Source of the DNA: Acidimicrobiia bacterium
GTDB taxonomy: Bacteria; Actinomycetota; Acidimicrobiia; Spongiisociales; ZC4RG35
Assembly (NCBI GenBank): GCA_965215185.1
Contig: OZ244034.1
Coordinates: 1,888,001 to 1,952,000, forward strand
Reading direction: 5' to 3'
Length of the DNA stretch: 64,000 nt
Positions 3,612 to 16,000 of the stretch are shown in pieces. Below the pieces are notes generated by a model. It ran no database searches. It was not told where the DNA came from and was given only the letters and a program-made list of their open reading frames with translations. The position numbers and the translations under genes are program-made. Positions within the stretch are counted from its first letter, which is position 1. Every line of letters starts with the position of its first letter.

Positions 3612-4310
3612 TTGACGCATAAGGCTGAAAAGGAGCAACAACACATAGACCTTGAAGCCATGCAGCGGGAGATGTACCTGCTCCCCGAAGCAGCCCGCCT
3701 GCTTCGCATAAATACCACCACCCTGAAAAGATGGCTGGAAGGAGACGAGCGGCTCCCGCCCGTGATTCGTCCCCAAGCCACAGGATCCGACGCGGTGACC
3801 TGGGGAGAGTTTGTGGAAGCAGGTTTTCTGCGGGAATATCGTAGGTCCTTGAGCCTCCAGAGGATACGTCCCGCTATTGCGAAACTACGGGAAAAATTTG
3901 ATGTGCCTTATCCCTTGGCGCATTACAAGCCCTTTATCGGACCAGGGCGCCATTTGACACTGGAGGCGCAACAGGAGGCACAAGTACCCCCAGATCTGTT
4001 CATCGTCTGGGAGATAGCAACAGGACAGTTGGCGCTCGCTGATTCAGCCTTGGGCTACATCGAGAAAGTCGACTTTGCTGCAGAAGGCAGGCGTTGGGCA
4101 GAGCGTATTCATCCAGCGGGACGGGAATCCCCGGTAGTTATCGATCCCGATTACTCGTTCGGAGCGCCAACCATCCGGGGCATCAAGACCTACATCATCA
4201 CCGAACTCGTGGAAGCGGGTGAATCTCTGGAATTCGTAGCAGAGGGCTACTCGCTTTCGGTGGCTGAAATAGAAGCCGCGGTCGCTTATGAAGGGAAAGC
4301 CGCTGCCTAA
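3612..4310 (+). CDS. DUF433-domain antitoxin (VapB45/Rv2018-like, N-terminal HTH)
   Basis: EAARLLRI..TTLKRW HTH, TWGEFVEAGFL, and C-terminal IDPDYSFGAPTIRG...AGESLE.VAEGY DUF433 region. Confidence 0.8.
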   Translation: MTHKAEKEQQHIDLEAMQREMYLLPEAARLLRINTTTLKRWLEGDERLPPVIRPQATGSDAVTWGEFVEAGFLREYRRSLSLQRIRPAIAKLREKFDVPYPLAHYKPFIGPGRHLTLEAQQEAQVPPDLFIVWEIATGQLALADSALGYIEKVDFAAEGRRWAERIHPAGRESPVVIDPDYSFGAPTIRGIKTYIITELVEAGESLEFVAEGYSLSVAEIEAAVAYEGKAAA

Positions 4311-4752
4311 GAGAAAGCCGTCCACGGTCCGCTTCTATATGGATGCTGACGTACTCGGTCTCGCCAAGGTCATTTCCAAAATCCGGCCTGATGTCACGTA
4401 CCCGGGCGATCCGGGCGGGGAGATCAGAAAGCGGGTACGACCACCCTGCCCGATCACCGATACTGAAACCACGGACCTCATATGGATCCCACAAGTCGCC
4501 CAGCGAGACTGGACCATCATCACCCGAGACCGGAATATTTCACGAAAACCAGCGGAGCGCGATACCGTGATCGCTTACAACGCTAAGCTTTTTGTCTTTA
4601 TTAAGCCCATCAATAAGAACTTTGATCTGTGGTCTCAACTGGAAGTCCTGATGACTCGATGGCGCGACATCGAACGACTCGGCGAAGAATCCGGGCCATT
4701 TATCTATAACGTCCATCGCACCACCGTCAATAGGGTCTGGCCAGCGGTTTAG
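4288..4752 (+). CDS. PIN-like toxin (VapC45-like)
   Basis: RFYMDADV, D..WIP.VA.RDW.IITRD.NI...PAE motifs; overlaps the antitoxin 3' end. Confidence 0.75.
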   Translation: MKGKPLPKRKPSTVRFYMDADVLGLAKVISKIRPDVTYPGDPGGEIRKRVRPPCPITDTETTDLIWIPQVAQRDWTIITRDRNISRKPAERDTVIAYNAKLFVFIKPINKNFDLWSQLEVLMTRWRDIERLGEESGPFIYNVHRTTVNRVWPAV

Positions 4753-5340: not shown

Positions 5341-6183
5341 ATGAGCCTTCCCATCAACTTTCTCTCCGATTTTGGAACCGACGACGAATTCGTTGGCGTA
5401 GTTCACGGCGTTTTAGCCCGGATTGCTCCCCAGTCGCGGGTGATCGACATCAACCATGGGATCGCGGCGGGGAGCGTACGGGCCGGCGCCCTTTCCCTGC
5501 TCCGCGCCGTTCAATACCTTCCCGCCGGAGTGACCCTGGCGGTGGTCGATCCCGGAGTGGGGACCGACCGCCGGGCCTTGGCCGTGGAAACCCTTGAGAT
5601 GACTTTCGTCGGACCTGACAACGGCCTCCTCTCACCCGCGGTGGCCATGATGGGAGGAGCCCTTCAGATGGTCTCGATTGAAAACCCCGACTATCGCCTG
5701 CCGGGCGCCGGCAACACCTTCTGGGGACGGGATGTCTTTGCTCCCGCCGCCGGGTCGTTGGCGGCGGGAGAAGCGCGCCTGGCTGACCTTGGCCCTTCGC
5801 TCGGACCCCATGAAGTCACTCCCCTGCTACTGCCTCTGTCGGAAATAACCGCCGGCCGGGTGAGCGGTGAAGCCTGGTGGGTGGACACCTACGGCAACGT
5901 CCAAACCAACATCTCCCCAGACGACCTGCAGGTCGCCGGCCTGGAGACCTGCTCGGAGCTTGCGGTGCGATTGGGCGCCTCCGTCCACCACATTCGGATG
6001 GCAGAGACCTACGCCCAGGTGGGCAGGGGCGAGATGCTGATCCATGTCGACTCGGCGGGGATGCTGGCCTTGGCGATGAGAGGAGGGCGGGCCTGTGACC
6101 GGCTGAGCCTCACCGAGGGGAGGTCAGTGGTCATGGAGAGAACATCAGTCCCCACAGTTGCACCACCGCCGCCACCACGATGA
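5341..6183 (+). CDS. SAM hydroxide adenosyltransferase / chlorinase-fluorinase family (DUF62)
   Basis: FLSDFG..D.FVG, VVDPGVGTDRR, GPDNGLL, TFWGRD and D.YGN..TNI motifs. Confidence 0.85.
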   Translation: MSLPINFLSDFGTDDEFVGVVHGVLARIAPQSRVIDINHGIAAGSVRAGALSLLRAVQYLPAGVTLAVVDPGVGTDRRALAVETLEMTFVGPDNGLLSPAVAMMGGALQMVSIENPDYRLPGAGNTFWGRDVFAPAAGSLAAGEARLADLGPSLGPHEVTPLLLPLSEITAGRVSGEAWWVDTYGNVQTNISPDDLQVAGLETCSELAVRLGASVHHIRMAETYAQVGRGEMLIHVDSAGMLALAMRGGRACDRLSLTEGRSVVMERTSVPTVAPPPPPR

Positions 6184-6226
6184 TCAAGGCCAGGGCCACT
6201 ATCACTATCGCGGTGCCGGGTCGCAC
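6131..6226 (-). CDS. Putative 31-aa single-TM small protein
   Basis: GTG start preceded by GGAAG; MRPGTAIVIVALALIIVVAAVVQLWGLMFSP is a clean hydrophobic helix. Overlaps only the low-complexity tail of the DUF62 gene. Confidence 0.45.
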   Translation of the reverse strand: MRPGTAIVIVALALIIVVAAVVQLWGLMFSP

Positions 6227-6271
6227 TATGTCACTTCCAAGAACGGGGACGGGAATTACCCAGGATATCCG

Positions 6272-6583
6272 ATGGCAGAGACGGCGGTGAGAAGCCGACG
6301 TCGCTACCTGGTGTTGTACACCCGCCCGCAGTGCCACCTGTGCGCGGTGGCGGAGCCTCGGGTGCGACGGGCCGCGATTCTGATAGGTATGGCGGTGCAA
6401 ACAGTGAACATCGATGACCAGCCTGATCTGGCGGTCGACTACGGACTTAGGATCCCGGTGGTTGAGGGTTCAAACGGGGAGGTGTTGGCCGAGGGGCAGT
6501 TCAGCACTTGGCGGCTGTGGTCGGCGATCCTGCGAAGAAGGTGGGGTCCCAGATCCCGGCAGGCGGGTCCCGAGGCGGGTTGA
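6272..6583 (+). CDS. Glutaredoxin-like protein (DUF836)
   Basis: LYTRPQCHLC, V.ID..P.L...YG.RIPVV motifs. Confidence 0.8.
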   Translation: MAETAVRSRRRYLVLYTRPQCHLCAVAEPRVRRAAILIGMAVQTVNIDDQPDLAVDYGLRIPVVEGSNGEVLAEGQFSTWRLWSAILRRRWGPRSRQAGPEAG

Positions 6584-6602
6584 CCCGCCTCCAATGATCA
6601 GC

Positions 6603-7640
6603 CTATTCCGCCTCGGTCTCTGCGGTTTCGGCCTGGTCGGGCTCCCCGGTCCCCTCTTGCCCTCCTCCTTCACCTGGCGGCTCTTCGCCGACGATCAAGC
6701 CGCACTCCTGCAGAGTCTCATCGGGGTCGGCCCCTCCGAAGCGGATCCGCTCGAAGGCCACCACCGAGGCTATTTCCTCTGCGGTGTTGCTGGTGCCGAA
6801 GGCGGACATGAAGCCGCCTCCACCCACAGGTTTGGCCAGATCGCCATAGGTATCGATTCCCGCGTCCAGAAAACCCCCGGTGGCCAGAGTCACCCACTCT
6901 ATGTGGTCCGAGCAACTGGAGAATGTGGATAGCACGGTGGCGAGCGCCGGCCCCACTCCCCCTTCGCCGTTGGCCCCATGACATCCCGCACAGGTCTCGA
7001 AAATCGCTTCCCCCACCACCAGAAATTCACCCGCCGGGTCTTCCGCCCGACCGGTGAATTCGCTGCCGTCGCAGTTGACCACCGTGGCATTGAGCCGATC
7101 GACCGCCAACTCCACACCTCCATCAACACAACCCGCCCGCGCCGAGTTCCCCGCCAGATACAGCAAACCGATAGTAGGTATCACCAGGAATAGGGCGGCG
7201 AGCCAACGAGGCAGACTGGATGAGGTTCTCTCGGTCAGGTGAGCGGTCGGCACCGACACCACCACCGGGAAAGAAACCGCTTCTTTGAGGGTGACCTCCG
7301 ACGGCGTCGGCGGTGGGGCGGCCACGATGGGGACGGAGGGAACAGGGGCAGCGGTGGGGATCGCCGGGGTAGGCGCCGTGGGAATCGCAACAGGCGGGGG
7401 GGTGGCAGGCGGGGTAGGCGCCATCGCCGCAGTTGCGGTGGGGGCGGCCGCAGTTGGCGCGGCGGGGGTGGGCGCAGAGGCCGGAGCGGAGGCTGCTGGA
7501 GCAGATCCGCCACCTGCCCAAGCCGCCAGAATCTCCTCGACGGGGACCCCGCTTGCGGCCGACCGCGCTTCGGCCGAGCGCTGGACTAAAACCTCCGGGG
7601 CGCCCATGGCTTCAGCCGCTCTGGCCAGATTTTCACTCAT
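6603..7640 (-). CDS. Membrane-anchored monoheme cytochrome c with N-terminal RSAEA module and Ala/Pro linker
   Basis: CAGCH, GEGGVGPAL and distal MSAFG; one TM helix; third gene of a ccoNO-like operon. Confidence 0.85.
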   Translation of the reverse strand: MSENLARAAEAMGAPEVLVQRSAEARSAASGVPVEEILAAWAGGGSAPAASAPASAPTPAAPTAAAPTATAAMAPTPPATPPPVAIPTAPTPAIPTAAPVPSVPIVAAPPPTPSEVTLKEAVSFPVVVSVPTAHLTERTSSSLPRWLAALFLVIPTIGLLYLAGNSARAGCVDGGVELAVDRLNATVVNCDGSEFTGRAEDPAGEFLVVGEAIFETCAGCHGANGEGGVGPALATVLSTFSSCSDHIEWVTLATGGFLDAGIDTYGDLAKPVGGGGFMSAFGTSNTAEEIASVVAFERIRFGGADPDETLQECGLIVGEEPPGEGGGQEGTGEPDQAETAETEAE

Positions 7641-8463
7641 CGGATCCGCCGTCGGTCAAGACTCGGGACTCCACCAGGTAAGCCACCAAAGAATCCATCG
7701 AACTGCCCCCGTAGGACAAATGCCCACCCTCACCCGAGAGCACCGCTTGGATGTCGTCGGGCGCCATCCGGTTCCCTACATTGGCCAAGTCCGGGCCATA
7801 ACGCTGCCGCCCGATCACTTGGTTGGAGTCGGACAGCGTCACCCCGCCCTGTCCCGCCAAGGCGGCCAATTGGGCGTCGGCAATTATGGGGCGGACCATT
7901 TGGGTATGGCAGGCCGCACACCCCTCCGCCAGATACTCGCCCTGACCCTGCAGAGCCATCTCACTATAGGGGATCTCGGAGTGGAGCACTCCCCTACCCA
8001 AACCCGAGATCGTGGGGACCACCAAGGTGATGGCCAGGCACAGGACCAACAGGGCGGCTGCGCCGAAGAAATACCGCAAAGGCCGATCCACCCGACCCGT
8101 CAAGATCGGGGGCGGTCCCTCGACCGTCGGGGCATAGACCACTACCGGTCTCTGAGGAGGAGAGGATACCGTAGCCGCGACGGCGGCAGGAGCGGCTGCC
8201 GGGGCCTCAGAGGGTGCGGGAGTGGCAGCAGGTACGGGCGCAGGGCGTGCAACGGCAGGCTCGAGTTCGGCGCGGGCAGGCGACGGTGCGGGGGCGGCGG
8301 CAGGCGGTGCTTCAGGGGCGGGTTCCGGTCCCTGTCCCGCCCAAGCTCTCAGGATTTCTTCGACAGAGACGCCACTGGCGCTGGCCCGGGCTTCTGCGGA
8401 GCGTTGCACCAACTCGGTGGGAGCTCCCACGACCTGCGCGGCGGCCTCCAACAGCTCGCTCAT
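7633..8463 (-). CDS. CcoO/FixO-like monoheme cytochrome c (cbb3 subunit II homolog)
   Basis: EGCAACHTQMVRP and G.QRYGPDLANVG match the CcoO pattern; N-terminal RSAEA module, linker and TM helix. Confidence 0.8.
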   Translation of the reverse strand: MSELLEAAAQVVGAPTELVQRSAEARASASGVSVEEILRAWAGQGPEPAPEAPPAAAPAPSPARAELEPAVARPAPVPAATPAPSEAPAAAPAAVAATVSSPPQRPVVVYAPTVEGPPPILTGRVDRPLRYFFGAAALLVLCLAITLVVPTISGLGRGVLHSEIPYSEMALQGQGEYLAEGCAACHTQMVRPIIADAQLAALAGQGGVTLSDSNQVIGRQRYGPDLANVGNRMAPDDIQAVLSGEGGHLSYGGSSMDSLVAYLVESRVLTDGGSDE

Positions 8464-9866
8464 TCTTCTTCCTCTTCCCGCATCTGAGATTCCGACGGTT
8501 CCGATCTGCCGGAATCGGCAGGTTCCTGGTCAGCGGCCAAGGCGAGAATCTCCTGGGCGGCCGGTCGTCCAGAGGTGAAGGTCCTCAACACCGCCAAACA
8601 GAAGGAGAGCTGACCTACCAGCGTCAGCAGACCCGACAGTATGGACAATCCCACCAGCAACGAGGCCATACCCACCAGACTCTCCCAACCATCCCCGGTG
8701 GGGCTGACACCGGTATAGGACCCTCCCGTCCAACCGTAACCCGACATCAGTCCGGCGCCCACCAACAGGGCGGAAGTCAAGCCCACCCCCCAGAAGGTGA
8801 AGCGCAGATGAAGCTGGGCAAGCCCCACTCCGGCCATCTTCCGGCCAGTGATCGACGGAAGCGCCTGATACGACCAAGCCGCCACCAGCAGCCCGCCGGC
8901 TCCGAACAGGGCAGCGTAGAGCACACCGTCCCAAAACGGCGTGAGACCCACCACCGCCGCCGCGGAACGGACGGCGCCGAAGCTGGTCAAAGCCGCGGTC
9001 ATCAAAGCGAAAAAGACACCCGCCAAGGCGGCCGCCACCACGGGACGCGTTCTTCGCTCCGCCCAGAACTGATCGGCGGTCAAGGCGAAGTTGGCGGCGT
9101 TGGCCAAAGCAGACACGGGAAGGGCGAGGGTCATCAGGAATGCCACCGCTTCCAACCAACCGGGAACCGGGCCGAAAACCAAGGGGGCGACTCCCGACCA
9201 TGCCGACGCGAAAGCCAGCGACCAGAAACCCACTCTGGCCAACTGCCGGCTGGCGAGAGGGTTTCCCGTCTCCTTCACCAAGGCGTAGTAGGCAAGCCCG
9301 ATTCCCATTCCCACCACCCACAGGTTGGCGAGTCCAAACAGAGCGACCGACTCGGATAGGGCTCCACCCATCGCCGAGGACGCGGGAAGCGCCCCCACCA
9401 GATACAGCAACGGAAGCCACACCACCCCACCCATGGCATACCACAAAGAAACATAGATATTGGGTTCTTGCCGATGCCGGACCGTAGAGATGGTGACCAA
9501 CATCGGCGTCAGCAGGGTCAGGAACAACGGAAGGGCGACCCACCAGGGAAGAGAGAAAGGACCCGTCCCATCTCCCCAACCCAACAACACCACTACCGCG
9601 CCCACCACGGTCACCAGGGCCGTGGCCACTCCCCCCGCCAATGCCAATCCTTCGCCGCGCAGGCGGGCGCCGGTGAGCCTGGGCAGCAAATAGTAGATTC
9701 CACCGACCAGCGACAGGGTCAACCAGCCCATCACGGCCAGCAGCAGGGCGATCGGGCGGATGCGACCGTAGGAGAAGGGCCCGGTCAGCGTCCCCGGGAA
9801 CCGCAGTTCCACCATCGCCGCCACCCACACGACCCCGGCCAGGGCCAAAAAGGCGGTGGAGATCAC
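8460..9866 (-). CDS. CcoN-like polytopic membrane protein lacking heme/Cu ligands (cbb3 subunit I homolog)
   Basis: About 12 TM helices with SYGRIRP, YYLLPRLTG, IYVSLWY and GFWSL scaffold motifs of CcoN; only two His in the protein. Start codon uncertain. Confidence 0.75.
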   Translation of the reverse strand: MISTAFLALAGVVWVAAMVELRFPGTLTGPFSYGRIRPIALLLAVMGWLTLSLVGGIYYLLPRLTGARLRGEGLALAGGVATALVTVVGAVVVLLGWGDGTGPFSLPWWVALPLFLTLLTPMLVTISTVRHRQEPNIYVSLWYAMGGVVWLPLLYLVGALPASSAMGGALSESVALFGLANLWVVGMGIGLAYYALVKETGNPLASRQLARVGFWSLAFASAWSGVAPLVFGPVPGWLEAVAFLMTLALPVSALANAANFALTADQFWAERRTRPVVAAALAGVFFALMTAALTSFGAVRSAAAVVGLTPFWDGVLYAALFGAGGLLVAAWSYQALPSITGRKMAGVGLAQLHLRFTFWGVGLTSALLVGAGLMSGYGWTGGSYTGVSPTGDGWESLVGMASLLVGLSILSGLLTLVGQLSFCLAVLRTFTSGRPAAQEILALAADQEPADSGRSEPSESQMREEEEE

Positions 9867-10181
9867 GATGTGCCATTTGGCAGCGGTATCAGAACCTAAG
9901 GTGTCCGACCACCCAGCGTAAGGCGCGACTCGCTTTTGCGGATGTCCGACTTGATTATTCTTTGTCGTATTCAGAGCGCTACCCCCGGTGGCTCCGGAAA
10001 TGAAAGGTTAGCCATGCTCGCCGCTCCAAAAGATAGCAAGAAAGAAACCCCACCGGGCGCAAGCGGCGCCGAGGGGCGTCAGGGCGGCCTTGGGATGAAA
10101 AAGGGTGCTAAGACTTTGTTTGAAGCACGTTCCGGTGTAAAAATAGAAGTGCTTCGACCCCGGAAGGCCATCTGGTAAGAG

Positions 10182-10811
10182 ATGCACCGCCTCGCTTCTA
10201 TAAGCTACCGAACAAGAATTCTCGTCGGTTGGTCGTCGCTATTGCTGGGAACAGGCCTCCTGGCGGTCGCCGTGCTGTGGATCCACTACTCGAAGCTGCC
10301 GCAGACCGAGATTGTCAACGGAGTGTCGACGGCGGTGGTGGTTGACTACTTCAACTGGATACCCCGAGGCTGGTTCTGGAAAAGCCTCGGTTATCTGGCC
10401 GCCCTGAGCGCCTCCCAGATGATGTTGGTGGGAGCGGCCTTCCTCTGGGTGCTTAACCAAAAGATGACCTGGGCGAGAGCGGCGTTTGCCGCCTTTTTGA
10501 TCTGGATCGAGCTGGTGATGGTGTTCGGGATCGTTCCATCCGAGTGGCTGAACCTCTCTCAGACCGACCTGGACTGGTCGGGACAGCGGATCGCGTTACG
10601 GATCCCTCCGGCCTTGATGCTGGGCAACGAGGTCTCGATTAGTTGGGCGGCCATCAAAGACTCCATTTCAGGCGCCTACAACGTGGGAACGCTGGCCGCC
10701 GCCGGCGTCTTTGCCTACCTGCTCCAGCAGGTCTACAAGCCGCCCAAGAAGCAGGCCGCCAAGGTCAAAGTGTCACCCTATGGGCGGCCGCTGGTGAAGG
10801 GAGATCGTTGA
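10182..10811 (+). CDS. Conserved membrane protein heading the Rieske/cytochrome b operon
   Basis: About 4 TM segments, FGIVPSEWL and C-terminal SPYGRPL; 1 nt from the ferredoxin gene. Confidence 0.7.
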   Translation: MHRLASISYRTRILVGWSSLLLGTGLLAVAVLWIHYSKLPQTEIVNGVSTAVVVDYFNWIPRGWFWKSLGYLAALSASQMMLVGAAFLWVLNQKMTWARAAFAAFLIWIELVMVFGIVPSEWLNLSQTDLDWSGQRIALRIPPALMLGNEVSISWAAIKDSISGAYNVGTLAAAGVFAYLLQQVYKPPKKQAAKVKVSPYGRPLVKGDR

Positions 10812-10812
10812 G

Positions 10813-11262
10813 ATGCCCCGCGGTGTTGTGGACGAGACCCCGCCCTTTCGCGACGATTACCAGCTCACCCTGGTCGACAACAACTTCTATAACGGAAAGA
10901 TCCGTCCCAAACAGTTTCTCCACATCGATCAGTCCGAATGCATCCTTTGCGAGGGCTGTGTGGACATCTGCCCGTGGAAATGCATCTTTTATCTCTCCAT
11001 GGAGGCCATCGACGAAGCGGTCAATGTCGACGATCCCCGCGAGGACCTCACCAACTATGGTTTCTTCGTTGTCGACGAGAACGAGTGCACCCGTTGCGCC
11101 CTGTGCATCGACCGCTGTCCCACCGGCGTCATCTCACTCGGCAAATTCGAAGGTTCTCTGGCCGCCCAGGCTGAAGAAATGGGGCTCAACTCGTCGCCCT
11201 GGGAGGTGGATACCGGCCAGAGGGACTTCAAACATGGCTATACCTATGGAATGCGCTGGTAA
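10813..11262 (+). CDS. 2x[4Fe-4S] dicluster ferredoxin
   Basis: CILCEGCVDICP and CTRCALCIDRCP; no signal peptide. Confidence 0.9.
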   Translation: MPRGVVDETPPFRDDYQLTLVDNNFYNGKIRPKQFLHIDQSECILCEGCVDICPWKCIFYLSMEAIDEAVNVDDPREDLTNYGFFVVDENECTRCALCIDRCPTGVISLGKFEGSLAAQAEEMGLNSSPWEVDTGQRDFKHGYTYGMRW

Positions 11263-11272
11263 GGAGTGAAGC

Positions 11273-12061
11273 GTGAGTAGACAAAACGGCAAACAGGGCC
11301 TTTTGACCAAAGCCCGTACCCATGCGACCGGTTTGATGGGACGGGTCTGGTCCGGCCAGTTCATGGACTCGGTTCTGCGCCCCGGCTCCCCCTTCAAGAA
11401 GGGATACACCGACACTCCTCGTAACCGCTCCTATGTGATCATGAACAACGTGCTGTATCACCTCCATCCGGTGAAGGTGAAACGACACGGTGTGAAGCTC
11501 TCCTACACCCTGTGCCTGGGGGGGATGAGCTTTTTCCTGTTCATTCTCCTGACCATCACCGGCATTTTCCTCATGTTCTATTACGCCCCCACCGCCGAGC
11601 GGGCCTACATAGATGTGCAGGCGCTGTCCACCGACATCGCGTTCGGCTCCCTGATGAGGAACATGCACCGATGGGGCGCCCATCTGATGGTGCTGACCGT
11701 GTTCCTCCACATGTCGAGAGTGTTTTACCACGGGGCTTACAAGCCGCCCCGCGAGTTCAACTGGATAGTGGGAGTCATCCTGTTGCTGTTGACCCTCCTC
11801 CTCTCCTTTACCGGGTATCTGCTTCCCTGGGACCAGTTGGCGCTGTGGGCCGTGACGGTGGGCAGCAACATGGCCGGCTTCGTTCCTGTCATAGGCGCGC
11901 AGGTGAAATTTGCCCTTTTGGGCGGAGTGGAGGTAACCGCGGGAACGCTTTTGCGATGGTATGTGCTCCACGTTCTCTTCCTGCCCTTCATCATCGTGAT
12001 CTTCCTGGCAGTCCATTTCTGGAGAGTCCGCAAAGACGGCGGCATCTCCGGCCCTCTCTAA
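11273..12061 (+). CDS. qcrB: Cytochrome b6-type subunit of a Rieske/cytb complex
   Basis: Four His ligands (HRWGAH...LH; LH-x14-H), CLGG heme-ci cysteine, [16 protein letters not shown], and a GISGPL C-terminus as in cytochrome b6. Confidence 0.9.
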
Positions 12062-12080
12062 CCATGCAAGGTATGCGCTA

Positions 12081-13028
12081 GTGCCACAAATCCCTGAAGA
12101 ACTGCTGAGACGCTCCGCCGAGGCGAAGGCCAAAGCGCTGGGTTTGCCGGTGGAACAGGTGCTGGCCGAGATGCGAGGGGAAGCTCCGGTCACCGAGATA
12201 GCCGCCGAGTCGGTGTCGGTGCCCGCTCCCCGCTTCGTTCCCACCACAGCCCGCATCCCTGTTTCCGAGATGCCCCCCGACCCGCAGCCGCCCGACCCCG
12301 CCTCGGCGCCGCCGCCCGCCATCACGGCAGTGGACGAGGTGGAAGAAGCCCAAGCCGAAGTAGCCGAGACTCCCGCCGCTGAAGCCCCCACCGCTTCGGA
12401 ACCGGGCGCGCCGGCCGGGGAGAACAGCGCCGGGAACGGACGGCTGGCGGCGGTCGTGTCGGTTCGACCCTCGGTGCCGCCCACCGACCTGCCCAAAGGC
12501 GTACGCCATCAACGACTGCTCACGGTGGTCAAAGCCCGAGCCATCCAACAGGTAAAGGCCGATCCCACCGACAAGGTGAACACCTGGCCGCATCTGATGA
12601 TCACCGAGTTCACCGCCCTCTTGGCGATGACCGCCTTTCTCCTGGTGCTCTCGGTCATCCTTCAGGCGCCTCTCCTGGAGTCGGCCAACTTCAACTCCAC
12701 CCCCAACCCGTCCAAGGCGCCCTGGTACTTCTTGGGCCTGCAAGAGATGCTCTCCTACTTCGATCCGCAGATCGCCGGGGTGACCGTGCCGACGGTGATC
12801 GGGTTAGTGGGATTCATGATGATTCCCTACATAGACCGCAATCCCTCCACCCGCCCGTCGGACCGCAAACTGGCCATCATGCTTTACACCATCTTCCTGG
12901 CCGGGTCGGCGACCCTCACCATCCTGGGGGTGCTGTTCCGTGGCCCCGGGTTCAACTTCGTCTACCCATGGGTTGATGGGGTGTTCTTCGATGACCTGAA
13001 AGACTGGGTTGATTTTGGTGGGCACTGA
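12081..13028 (+). CDS. Subunit IV-like (cytochrome b C-terminal half) with N-terminal RSAEA module
   Basis: WPHL, TPNPSKAPWYFLGLQE (PEWY equivalent) and PYIDRNP; N-terminal module plus Pro/Ala/Glu linker. Confidence 0.85.
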   Translation: MPQIPEELLRRSAEAKAKALGLPVEQVLAEMRGEAPVTEIAAESVSVPAPRFVPTTARIPVSEMPPDPQPPDPASAPPPAITAVDEVEEAQAEVAETPAAEAPTASEPGAPAGENSAGNGRLAAVVSVRPSVPPTDLPKGVRHQRLLTVVKARAIQQVKADPTDKVNTWPHLMITEFTALLAMTAFLLVLSVILQAPLLESANFNSTPNPSKAPWYFLGLQEMLSYFDPQIAGVTVPTVIGLVGFMMIPYIDRNPSTRPSDRKLAIMLYTIFLAGSATLTILGVLFRGPGFNFVYPWVDGVFFDDLKDWVDFGGH

Positions 13029-13056
13029 TGGCCGTTAACTGGATTCGGACGGCCTG

Positions 13057-13920
13057 ATGGGCGGCGTCGAACTGATCATCATCGGTGTGGCGGCGGTCGC
13101 CATCGCCGCCGCGGTGGGTGCCTTCACCATCGCCTTCCGCCGCGCCGAACCCGACCCCGCTTCTCTGTGGCCCAAGAAGCTGGAGCGTGGCGCCCGGAAA
13201 GCGGACCGTTCCACCTCCACCATGGAACTGGTGCTTACCACCGAGGCGGATGCTGTGGACGAGGACGAGGAAGTCGATGCACCAGAATACGAAGCCCCGG
13301 CCCCGGTGGCAGAGCGCTTGGCGCCCATCACCGAATCCCAGGTAATCGTTGAGGCGTCTGCAGAGGAGGTGGGGGTAACCCGCCGACAGTTCTTCAACCG
13401 GTCCCTGGCCGCCATGTCGGTGGCCTGGTTCGGGATCATGGGAATCGAGATCCTGGCCTTCCTGTGGCCCAAGATCACCGGAGGATTCGGAAGCGACGTC
13501 GACGCCGGGAGCGCCGCCGACCTGGTTCCCGAGATGACCGACACCGCGGGCCTGGTAACTCCGGCTTTCATCCCCGACGCCCGCGCCTACGTGGTACCGG
13601 CGCCCGTTGAGATGAGTCAGCAATTCGCTGGCAGAGATGTGGCGGCCGGAGGGCTGATGGCGCTCTACCAGCGGTGCGTCCACCTGGGATGCCGGGTGCC
13701 CTGGTGCGACGACTCCCAGGGCTTCGAATGTCCCTGCCACGGCTCCAAATACAACTCGGTCGGAGAGTATTTTGCTGGCCCCGCACCCCGAAATCTGGAC
13801 CGTTTCTCGGTCCACGTCACCGACGATGGGCGTCTGATAATCAGGACCGGGGTTATAGTGGAAACCCCCCGGGCTAACGCTCAGTCTGTGTCATATCCGC
13901 AAGGCCCCTCCTGCATATAG
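13057..13920 (+). CDS. qcrA: Rieske 2Fe-2S subunit
   Basis: [24 protein letters not shown]; Tat-like TRRQFF before the TM helix; additional N-terminal TM. Confidence 0.9.
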
Positions 13921-13930
13921 GGGAGATATT

Positions 13931-15637
13931 GTGGATTCCTCGCTAGTAATAACCCTGGTGGTGGTGGGAGCCGTAATCTGGCTCTCCTTTTTGGGAGTGG
14001 CCGCCCTGCGCTCCCGACGGCGGGAAGGAATCCCTCCCAACCAGGCGCCGGGCGTCACCGACGACGCTTTGGAAACCCGCCGCCTGGAACGTATCCAACA
14101 GGCCGCCGTCCTGCTGTCGGCCTTCCTGGCGGTGGGGCTGGCTGTTTACTACCTGAGCGAAACCGATCGACAGGAAAGCTTCGTGGACCAGTTCCACGAG
14201 GAGTCGGTGGAACGCGGCGCCGAACTGGTCGGGCCCGACGAGGCCGACTGCTGGAGTTGTCACGGCCCCAGCGGAGTGGGAGGTGTGGCCAGCTATGTGG
14301 AGAAGCGCACCGGGGTGAACGTGTCATGGTCGGCGCCTTCACTCGATGACATCTTCTTGCGTTATGACCGTGACATAATCACCTATTGGGTGACCTATGG
14401 GCGAGGCAACTCCCCCATGCCGCCGTGGGGCACGGTGGGAGGCGGTCCCATGAACGAACAACAGGTTTTCGACATCGTCAACTACCTGGAAAGTATCCAA
14501 CTCTCTCAGCAGAACATCCTCCGCAAGGCCGACACCATCGTGGTGGGTCAGCTGAGTGTTCTGGAGAATGCCGACCAGGCCCTGGAAAAGGCCATTATCG
14601 AACAGCGCCAACTGATCGCCGACATCGAGGCGGCGCCCCGGTACGCCGAGATGATGGCCAATCTGGTAGCGCTCGCCCGCCAGAGCCTGAATGGCTCGGA
14701 CCGGGGGATCGATCGCGACGGTGACAACTTGTCGGACGTTTCAGAAGTGACGATCTCCCAACTGACCGCTGCCGCAGCGGCCCTGTTCGACATCAATCAG
14801 ATCGAGGCTCTGACATTCGATCCGCAGAATCCCGCCACTGACGGCCGTCCCGACGCAGATGTAGCCGACCATGCCATCTCCCATCTGCAGGAGGTGGTGC
14901 CCCAGGTGCCGATTCTCGAGTTGCGCGTGCAGTCCATCAGAACGGCGCTGCTGGCCGAGGACGAGGAGGACTCCGACGGTGACCAACTCTCCGATCGGGC
15001 GGAAAGAGTGCTAACCGCCGAACTGGCCATCGCCAGGACGGCGCTTCGCCCTAATACCTTGACAGTGGTGAACCTCGACCCGGAGCGTGCTTCTTCGGGT
15101 GGGGGAGTCAACGATGATCAAACCGCCGCCACCGCCGTCTCGGGTATGGAGGCCGCCGCCGTAAACCTGGCGGTACGAACCGAAAACGGCGAGCGGCTGC
15201 TCGGTCCGGCCCGGGCGGGACTGGAAGAGTTACTGGCCGCCCAGGAGCAGCGGAAATGGGAGATAGACCTGGAAGGCGTGGCCGCGGCCGCCTTCTTTGG
15301 AAATTCGGAGCAGGCCTCCCGGGCGGTCGGTGTGTTCACCGGGTATTGCGCGCGCTGCCACACTTCCGGCTGGTCGGCGGGGACCCCCTACGCTGCTCAA
15401 CCCGGCTCGGGGGGATTCGGGCCGGCGCTTTGGAAGGGCCGACCGCATGTTCAGTTCCTAAACAAGGAGAAACTGCGCTCCTTCCTGTTGGTGGGAGCGG
15501 TTGCGGACCGGCCTTACGGAGTGAACGGATTCGGAAATGGCCAGATGCCCGCCTTCGGGACGGTGCTCTCATCCGACGACCTGGACCTGCTGGTGGAGTA
15601 CTTGTGGGCAGGGAATCTTAACGGCAAGGGAACCTAA
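13931..15637 (+). CDS. Membrane-anchored diheme cytochrome c with a large insert
   Basis: CWSCH...MPPWG and CARCH...MPAFG; two N-terminal TMs; two DxDGDxLSD motifs in the insert. Confidence 0.85.
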   Translation: MDSSLVITLVVVGAVIWLSFLGVAALRSRRREGIPPNQAPGVTDDALETRRLERIQQAAVLLSAFLAVGLAVYYLSETDRQESFVDQFHEESVERGAELVGPDEADCWSCHGPSGVGGVASYVEKRTGVNVSWSAPSLDDIFLRYDRDIITYWVTYGRGNSPMPPWGTVGGGPMNEQQVFDIVNYLESIQLSQQNILRKADTIVVGQLSVLENADQALEKAIIEQRQLIADIEAAPRYAEMMANLVALARQSLNGSDRGIDRDGDNLSDVSEVTISQLTAAAAALFDINQIEALTFDPQNPATDGRPDADVADHAISHLQEVVPQVPILELRVQSIRTALLAEDEEDSDGDQLSDRAERVLTAELAIARTALRPNTLTVVNLDPERASSGGGVNDDQTAATAVSGMEAAAVNLAVRTENGERLLGPARAGLEELLAAQEQRKWEIDLEGVAAAAFFGNSEQASRAVGVFTGYCARCHTSGWSAGTPYAAQPGSGGFGPALWKGRPHVQFLNKEKLRSFLLVGAVADRPYGVNGFGNGQMPAFGTVLSSDDLDLLVEYLWAGNLNGKGT

Positions 15638-15640
15638 GTA

Positions 15641-16000
15641 ATGCGTGAACTGTTTCGCTCGCTGCTATCGGCCAACCTGTTCGTCACCGGGATCATCCTG
15701 CTGGTGACGGCGATCTTGGTCTTCTACGGCACCGTCTACCTTCTCAACTACACCAACCTAGGAAAGAAGCTGGCGTTCCTGGTGACCGGGGCCGGGATCT
15801 CGGCCTGGATGACCATAGGCAGCATGCTCTTCGTCCTCTACGCTCCCCGCGGCCCCCGCCCGGCCAACATCGAGGGACTCAACGCCTTCGAAGTGCGGAT
15901 CATCCCCATCACTTTCACAGTGGTCTCGGCCGTTCTTTTCATCGGATTCCTGGTAGCCCTCCACCAATACGAAGAAGCCCGAGAAAAAGCCGACCTTTAA
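15641..16000 (+). CDS. Small 3-TM membrane protein, last gene of the operon
   Basis: Three hydrophobic segments; 3 nt after the cytochrome c stop. Confidence 0.7.
   Translation: MRELFRSLLSANLFVTGIILLVTAILVFYGTVYLLNYTNLGKKLAFLVTGAGISAWMTIGSMLFVLYAPRGPRPANIEGLNAFEVRIIPITFTVVSAVLFIGFLVALHQYEEAREKADL

Follow-up and report, generated by a model that had tools for sequence, protein, structure and literature searches.

The closest described relatives of the system studied here are the cbb3 oxidases and the bc1-cbb3 supercomplexes, in which the CcoN subunit is a working member of the heme-copper oxidases. This superfamily is defined by six histidine (His) ligands. In the functional enzymes two of them serve the low-spin heme, one the high-spin heme and three the CuB/FeB site, and without the six residues heme b, heme b3 and CuB cannot be held. 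A tyrosine of helix VII of CcoN is also cross-linked to one of the CuB histidines. We studied a gene for a CcoN-like protein in which all of these residues are replaced, together with the genes around it. It lies at 8460..9866 of a stretch of 64,000 nucleotides from an Acidimicrobiia bacterium (assembly GCA_965215185.1, contig OZ244034.1, positions 1,888,001 to 1,952,000); below, the window always means this whole stretch. The gene very probably encodes a descendant of CcoN (C-family) that has kept the fold of 12 helices, carries no cofactor and reduces neither O2 nor NO. An earlier note on the window, made from the letters of the sequence, had described the frame of 468 codons as a CcoN homolog that had lost all six ligands but was kept intact. 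We found the same uninterrupted frame; the strand, which was missing there, is minus.

Fold and ligand positions of the CcoN-like protein

The assignment to subunit I held up in a profile comparison: the protein matched the Pfam family COX1 (PF00115) with 90.2 bits against a cut-off of 34.8, across profile positions 9-415 of 436. The NCBIfam equivalog model for ccoN (TIGR00780) gave 105.9 bits against a cut-off of 583.15, which places the protein outside the CcoN members defined by that model. Among the sequences of the PDB, phmmer found five distinct chains, all of them cbb3 CcoN or 'cytochrome-c oxidase', with 6xkw_n as the best match (E 4.6e-18). The HMMER alignment displays several structural motifs in common with solved CcoN, namely GRxRP, MxYY/AYY, FW.L, W.G and the EP.IYV loop. 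An AlphaFold2 (AF2) model built on 104 relatives reached a mean predicted local distance difference test score (pLDDT) of 91.7 and a predicted template modelling score (pTM) of 0.90. When this model was compared with the PDB using Foldseek, seven cbb3 CcoN chains ranked first (E ~1e-19 to 4e-18, template modelling score 0.84-0.86, 19-22% identity), followed by the cNOR structures 4xyd and 3o0r at 0.72-0.76 and then by ba3 and aa3 oxidases at 0.7. A heme-copper-oxidase-like fold had been set beforehand as a test of the idea, and the predicted model does superpose on the solved CcoN chains. Judged by its sequence and its modelled structure, the product thus belongs to the heme-copper-oxidase superfamily by its subunit I fold.

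The ligand positions were read from two alignments. HMMER pairs GRIRPIA of the window protein with GRLRPLH of 6xkw_n, WSGVAP with WAGPHH and WDGVLY with TIGHVH, and in a MAFFT alignment with canonical relatives F177 is aligned to the helix-VI His of FYGHN. The residues at the six positions are A40, F177, A227, P228, V315 and Y317. From these alignments to solved and canonical CcoN we conclude that six of six ligand positions are non-His, which bears out the central claim of the earlier note. The motifs quoted in support of it were also recovered (GRIRPIA at residues 34-40, ALFGLAN at 175-181, WSGVAP at 223-228 and FWDGVLY at 311-317). The column of the helix-VII tyrosine (the Y of LYIWAGPHH) holds S221. 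Testing for a reductase of the cNOR or qNOR type gave the same outcome, the same ligand columns being non-His. The absence of the six His, taken together with the established chemistry of heme-copper oxidases, is the reason why we exclude O2 and NO reduction, a step that had been taken in the earlier note and that follows from the ligand loss. The real protein would be expected to be free of heme b and copper cofactors.

The loss is not confined to the window. A word-indexed search returned 125 relatives at E<=0.001; 120 of them were listed (39-99% identity), and the named source organisms among these are Acidimicrobiia, Actinomycetia or metagenome-assembled genomes (MAGs) given simply as 'bacterium'. 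When the query and the 120 listed relatives were aligned with MAFFT, 117 of the 121 rows showed no His at any of the six positions. The remaining four rows have one His each, one of them at column 228 and three at column 317. The helix-VII tyrosine column is occupied by A in 72 rows, S in 30 and G in 19. Only five Tyr columns and one Lys column are conserved to at least 80% among all His, Met, Cys, Lys and Tyr columns of a 104-row alignment; none is at a ligand site, and at Y193, Y194 and K198 solved CcoN has the identical residue. In one member of the family His is absent altogether. The five ligand columns that were checked in ten distant class loci (25-33% identity) are likewise free of His (10/10). 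Close orthologs that retain the ligands had been regarded as the sign of a decaying copy; close orthologs and distant fused forms were both found to be without the ligand His.

To a wider search with a profile, covering 1.84 billion cluster representatives, there were 1707 matches at E<=0.001 and 227 at E<=1e-30. The best 146 matches were aligned with the query, and we kept 115 rows, each of which spans no fewer than 380 of the first 445 query columns. Across the five ligand columns 72 rows have no His, 25 have all five and 18 are partial. In the FastTree phylogeny, which was midpoint-rooted, so that the root is not inferred, and in which many forks are unsupported, a branch with a local support of 99 separates 68 rows (66 without any of the five His, two with one) from 47 rows that include all 25 canonical ones. 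The window protein sits in a clade of 20 rows that are all His-less. Its sister is a clade of 30 rows, mostly proteins of 610-750 aa; searching ten of the longer forms against Pfam identified COX1+FixO fusions in eight and COX1+cupredoxin fusions in two. A few further ligand losses are found on the canonical side of the tree. On this tree the His-less CcoN-like proteins form one large clade apart from all canonical CcoN.

The gene is kept by selection. We computed the ratio of nonsynonymous to synonymous substitution rates (dN/dS, Nei-Gojobori) for the 105 pairs of 15 close orthologs and observed values of 0.05-0.28, mostly 0.12-0.16, in the 25 pairs with the lowest dS. This is purifying selection and speaks against the decaying copy that the earlier note had considered. 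The 104-row alignment, at 39-99% identity, has 25 invariant columns and a mean column identity of 50%. A scan of one genome per species detected 187 stretches that encode a CcoN-like relative. Of the class genomes that are at least 90% complete, 82 of 301 match at E<=1e-30 (one unpublished genome, G202, is in the tally). Counted by family and leaving out the window's own genome, 41 of 42 match in the window's own family and 8/12, 18/22, 6/7, 2/3, 2/2 and 2/2 in the sister families within its order; two more matches come from beyond the order. The threshold of E<=1e-30 misses divergent CcoN-like copies. In family f12, whose genomes measure 0.9-1.1 Mb, it was reached by 0 of 12, yet G005 and G054 have a second COX1 match (39.6 and 37.5 bits). 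The streamlined genome G005 (1.1 Mb) encodes a CcoN-like frame of 469 aa whose single His lies outside the five ligand columns checked, and it keeps the whole cluster in the window's gene order.

Across a sample of the phylum 26 of 401 genomes match at E<=1e-15 (the unpublished G364 is in the tally). Eight of the 19 matches outside the class were examined: three are canonical with 6/6 His, three have 0/6, one has 1/6, and one, L106, is partial. L106 (G303:C5:12001-31000, match at 8766-10082 on the minus strand) comes from another actinobacterial class; both heme b His are kept there and none of the four heme b3/CuB positions is, and it may be an intermediate, heme-b-only form. We also encountered a second COX1-like frame in L098 (G002:C1:258001-272000), about 3 kb from that genome's true COX1. 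It has 557 aa, 146 bits to Pfam COX1 and 6 His, none of them in a ligand column in a rough, possibly unreliable alignment to C-family sequences.

The start of the window's gene requires some care. The segment GSDTAAKWHI, conserved in the family, is encoded upstream of the GTG at 9866, in 9867-9902 on the minus strand. This conserved N-terminal part is likely to reach as far as about 9899-9902, a position without a canonical start codon: the M of a 99%-identical relative corresponds to TTA in the window and the M of other orthologs to ACC, and the GTG is found 11 codons downstream of the orthologous start position. A DNA sequencing run that covers the whole of 6000-16000 agrees with the window over 9867-9902. 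Because a conserved segment precedes the GTG and TTA stands at the relative's M, the true start is uncertain and a third His, that of KWHI, is possible. The count of two His given in the earlier note is therefore correct for the frame from GTG, which has only H131 (VRHR) and H353 (QLHL), and may be one too low for the complete protein. The KWHI column, just before the first transmembrane helix, shows 74 His and 10 Tyr, counted over the 88 of 104 rows in which it is occupied; it is the family's only semi-conserved His and is not a ligand site.

Partner cytochromes and the complex III operon

The features of the locus are listed in Table 1. The ATG of the ccoO-like gene (8463) overlaps the stop of the ccoN-like gene (8460-8462) as ATGA, and the third gene overlaps the ccoO-like gene by 8 nt. 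On account of these overlaps we regard all three as translationally coupled; for the first two this had already been proposed. The CcoO-like protein consists of an N-terminal tethered domain (NTD), a Pro/Ala linker, one transmembrane helix and a heme c domain. It matches FixO (PF02433) with 46.9 bits at profile positions 19-114 of 219, so that a CcoO adjacent to the ccoN-like gene is present, with a truncated match. The second cytochrome c shows the same NTD and linker and also has one predicted transmembrane helix. It takes the position of CcoP with one heme instead of two, as the third gene has a single CXXCH and thus does not encode a diheme CcoP.

Both heme sites are conserved. Orthologs of the CcoO-like protein have exactly one CXXCH in 71 of the 71 loci with a domain match, and orthologs of the second cytochrome c have the motif in 67/67 loci (one copy in 66, two in 1). 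A fused CcoO-like domain with CXXCH is found in 9/10 distant loci. H248 of the CcoO-like subunit is conserved to at least 90%, and no Met reaches this level; the second cytochrome c keeps a conserved Met278. Of the roles that the earlier note had put forward, namely a scaffold, a quinone or ion conduit and a sensor, a scaffold for two c-type cytochromes is the best-supported reading, given CXXCH in all orthologs and the natural CcoN-CcoO fusions in the clade.

Table 1. Coordinates of the features discussed (positions in the window unless a genome and contig are given).
Feature	Position	Strand	Remarks
CcoN-like heme-copper-oxidase-fold protein, 12 transmembrane helices, without heme/Cu ligands	8460..9866	-	468 aa from GTG
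CcoO/FixO-like monoheme cytochrome c	7633..8463	-	276 aa; CAACH at residue 182
Second membrane-anchored monoheme cytochrome c	6603..7640	-	345 aa; CAGCH at residue 217
NTD copy on CcoO-like protein	8329..8463	-	
NTD copy on 345-aa cytochrome c	7506..7640	-	
NTD copy on subunit IV-like protein	12081-12194	+	
NTD copy on 394-aa membrane protein beside caa3	G000:C1:2757739-2757873	+	
Divergent intergenic region, ccoN-like operon / Rieske-cytochrome b operon	9867..10181	.	
Conserved protein with four transmembrane helices, no known family	10182..10811	+	209 aa; first gene of divergent operon
2x[4Fe-4S] ferredoxin-like protein	10813..11262	+	149 aa; no transmembrane helix
Cytochrome b6-type (N-terminal half) subunit	11273..12061	+	
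Subunit IV-like protein (cytochrome b C-terminal half)	12081..13028	+	NTD and long linker
Rieske 2Fe-2S subunit	13057..13920	+	
Membrane-anchored diheme cytochrome c	13931..15637	+	568 aa; CWSCH at 107, CARCH at 473

The NTD measures 35-45 residues (consensus PEELVxRSAEARAxALGVPVEEVL). It is present on the CcoO-like protein, the second cytochrome c and the subunit IV-like protein, and in all three it precedes a long Pro/Ala-rich linker that is followed by a transmembrane helix. A profile built from these three copies found exactly four of the genome's six-frame open reading frames within the inclusion threshold, at E values of 8e-26 to 2e-13, the next one having an E value of 0.2. The fourth frame (E 2.1e-13) encodes a polytopic membrane protein of 394 aa at the caa3 operon, where its gene converges with CtaG; no Pfam family matched it, and in the Atlas it scored 0.85 at best, with a hypothetical cluster. 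The domain was found in 80/80 loci and in 106/301 class genomes. Five complete or near-complete relatives have 2-5 copies, including three to four tandem copies on single frames. There was no Pfam match at E<=10, E3_binding included, apart from a chance-level match to MIF (E 0.11), and a word-based search with residues 1-45 detected nothing beyond 33 close proteins of the CcoO-like or cytochrome c kind. The copies in the window are not connected by any long DNA repeat, so recent gene conversion is not seen there. The NTD is an undescribed cytoplasmic domain that probably links the proteins carrying it, either mutually or through a partner they have in common. It may resemble the peripheral-subunit-binding domain on the Ala/Pro-rich swinging arms of the E2 chains of 2-oxoacid dehydrogenases, which is likewise small, two-helix-like, combined with long Pro/Ala linkers and sometimes tandem. 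It differs in its location at the N-terminus of membrane respiratory subunits and in the missing E3_binding match. Since the domain is shared, the genomic evidence points to the ccoN-like operon, complex III and the caa3 locus as one functional unit.

The operon that diverges from the ccoN-like gene encodes a variant of complex III, and its cytochrome b6-type gene is the genome's only cytochrome b. Two COX1 matches are found in the genome: the ccoN-like gene and one of 517 bits in a caa3 operon, which consists of COX2 with a fused cytochrome c, COX1, COX3 and CtaG. A separate intact oxidase, whose presence the earlier note had left to be checked, therefore exists, and caa3 is the only working oxidase of the genome. 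We compared the window proteins with 80 related loci using tblastn. The gene for the protein with four transmembrane helices lies divergently upstream in 76/80, and in the other four the upstream flank is shorter than 430 bases. Where the flank extends far enough, this gene is followed by those for ferredoxin, cytochrome b, Rieske and cytochrome c. The association with the complex III cluster is kept in 9/10 distant loci.

Some further properties of these genes were recorded. The ferredoxin gene stands directly before that of cytochrome b6; this is conserved across the class, and no ferredoxin gene was detected in locus L094. The arrangement suggests that the soluble ferredoxin is a cytoplasmic-side redox partner of the complex III variant. 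In 51 orthologs of the protein with four transmembrane helices 17 columns are invariant. No Pfam family matches this protein, the Atlas search gave hypothetical actinobacterial clusters only, and its AF2 model (pLDDT 88.1) had no Foldseek match in the PDB at E<=0.001. In the diheme cytochrome c the two heme motifs are ~365 residues apart with a long acidic insert between them, which is probably helical. A gene pair for a DUF433 and a PIN-like protein (window 3612-4752, plus strand), likely a toxin-antitoxin-type module, is located a few kb downstream of the cluster.

Possible roles of the module

A large and old clade keeps the fold and the c-type partners after losing the six His, even in 1.1-Mb genomes, and hence the scaffold has a function apart from catalysis. 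We lean towards a redox-dead CcoN-like shell in the membrane that serves as the platform of a cytochrome c relay linked to complex III, because what selection preserves is the shell, a c-type (or cupredoxin) partner and the place beside complex III. The 'c-only' module would be composed of the CcoN shell, the CcoO-like heme c subunit and the second anchored monoheme cytochrome c. It would be kept by purifying selection and inherited with the unusual complex III (ferredoxin, split b6/subunit IV, Rieske and diheme c). Docked on or near this complex, it would pass on electrons along the membrane's outer face; these would come from the Rieske/diheme-c side, move over the two c hemes and end at the cytochrome c domain that belongs to caa3. 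Docking at complex III and a relay to caa3 through both c hemes seem to us somewhat favoured on balance. We infer the association with complex III from synteny and, beyond that, the direction and the role of the electron flow.

Several observations weigh against this picture. In L090 the bc cluster is not within 9 kb, and in L091, L092, L099 and L100 it is 4-7 kb away; in the last two, which belong to another class, the ferredoxin and cytochrome b genes lie ~6.7 kb from the ccoN-like match. With a diheme cytochrome c already encoded in the bc operon and a cytochrome c domain fused to caa3, there is no obvious need for two further c hemes. Judging from the conserved residues, the CcoO-like heme may be bis-His ligated and of low potential, a poor fit to a relay towards caa3. 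The conserved N-terminus of the window's ccoN-like gene has no canonical start codon, as described above. Finally, the metatranscriptome contigs for 6000-16000 cover 10137-11361, where they fall on the four-helix protein and ferredoxin genes, and small conserved pieces of cytochrome b, and none is on the ccoN-like gene, although such contigs cannot show absence.

The redundancy of c hemes would suit a cytochrome c platform with another job, such as taking up electrons from an external donor or passing them to a different acceptor in the periplasm. The lower potential suggested by a possible bis-His CcoO-like heme and the existence of cupredoxin-fused variants point the same way. We nevertheless consider this rather unlikely in view of the strict class-wide divergent synteny with the sole complex III, the NTD that is common to subunit IV and the protein beside caa3, and the retention of the module in tiny marine genomes with few accessory pathways. 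Polar residues of the shell might instead suggest an ion or proton conduit or a transporter whose link to cytochromes is secondary. There is a buried acidic residue in FW(D/E)G at the former heme b3 region (D/E313; D in 70 and E in 42 of 121 rows), a Gln at a CuB His position (column 228) in 92/121 close-family rows, and the cytoplasmic motifs R132-x-E134 and PLASRQLAR are invariant or nearly so. However, these residues are not conserved in the wider His-less clade, where the conserved feature is the attached c-type cytochrome or cupredoxin domain, and we think a conduit unlikely. From genomic linkage alone, a subunit would look the same as an assembly factor, a regulator or a sensor of respiratory complexes, and tethered NTDs could recruit assembly partners. 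Assembly factors of cbb3 such as CcoH or CcoS are single-transmembrane proteins, whereas here two covalent heme c sites and a full body of 12 transmembrane helices are under selection, more than is usual for such a factor; a non-stoichiometric helper of this kind is quite improbable.

The shell could also bind a redox cofactor through unconventional ligands, among them Tyr317 and the N-terminal His/Tyr, and have a catalytic or electron-transfer role of its own. A Tyr occupies one heme b axial His position in 93/121 rows, the column before the first transmembrane helix is mostly His or Tyr, and the partly liganded L106 retains both heme b His while the remaining four are missing. At the opposite axial position, however, all 118 rows with a residue have Ala, Ser, Thr or Gly, 23 rows have V, T, A, M, F, L, I or R in place of Tyr317, and both the member without any His and the distant fused forms, with unrelated residues there, are difficult to reconcile with such a cofactor, so that we judge it very unlikely. 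That the gene is the decaying pseudogene of a dead cbb3 oxidase might be argued from the loss of all catalytic ligands and from the missing canonical start codon at the orthologous start position. The uninterrupted frame, the low dN/dS, the invariant columns in sequences down to 39% identity, the 187 relatives in the species scan, the persistence in 1.1-Mb genomes and the GTG 11 codons downstream leave this with hardly any probability.

The relay platform beside complex III may also be part of something larger. It is possible, though we hold it only tentatively and expect it less than its contrary, that the CcoN shell and the two c hemes are a stoichiometric and obligatory subunit of an undescribed Acidimicrobiia supercomplex, in which the ferredoxin-bearing Rieske/b6 complex, the pseudo-cbb3 module and caa3 would be held together in part by the NTD, which subunits of all three would carry. 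The adaptor would then have been retained since before the split of several actinobacterial classes. If this is true, it would be a bacterial case of a respiratory enzyme turned supercomplex adaptor.

Comparison with described respiratory systems

A literature search that reached few of the subscription journals found no description of a His-less CcoN. Databases label these proteins 'cbb3-type cytochrome c oxidase subunit I'. For this family the oxidase label is wrong, as the protein cannot be an oxidase. At least one metagenome paper (PMC8357290) credits MAGs of Acidimicrobiales with 'caa3- and cbb3-type' oxidases; if the genes meant there are members of this family, any high-affinity, low-oxygen respiration that is deduced for Acidimicrobiia from this gene would be wrong. 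The module adjoins an uncharacterised complex III variant, with ferredoxin and split cytochrome b, in a widespread class that is largely uncultured and whose members include abundant lineages from the sea, from soil and from sponges.

Divergent relatives of the heme-copper oxidases that no longer reduce O2 have been described before, namely cNOR, qNOR and the newer nitric oxide reductase (NOR) families. According to Murali et al. (2024, PMC11214002), the newer families keep the high-spin heme and a metal ligated by three His (two His and an Asp in gNOR) and lack only the Tyr. The window family has none of these ligands.

The cbb3 oxidases CcoNOP (P. stutzeri 3MK7/5DJQ, R. capsulatus 6XKW, P. 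aeruginosa 8SMR) have the same fold of 12 transmembrane helices and the same order of an N-like, an O-like and a further cytochrome c component, encoded by overlapping genes. The window module differs from them in that the six His and the helix-VII tyrosine are missing, the third subunit has one heme, and the CcoO-like subunit carries a cytoplasmic NTD. The bc1-cbb3 supercomplexes (6XKW, 8SMR, 9G83), which also provide the top fold matches, place a CcoN-fold protein and c-type cytochromes beside a Rieske/cytochrome b complex. Their CcoN is a working oxidase, whereas that of the window is redox-dead and a separate caa3 is required; the association with complex III is seen directly in the former and suggested by synteny in the latter. 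With the actinobacterial bcc-aa3 supercomplex (QcrCAB-CtaCDEF, 7QHO) the system would share the lack of a soluble cytochrome c step, and in both the complex III operon encodes a diheme cytochrome c and the Rieske protein has transmembrane helices at its N-terminus. It differs from bcc-aa3 in the split b6/subunit IV, in the ferredoxin and the four-helix protein of the operon, in a caa3 with fused cytochrome c and in the extra, cofactor-less CcoN module.

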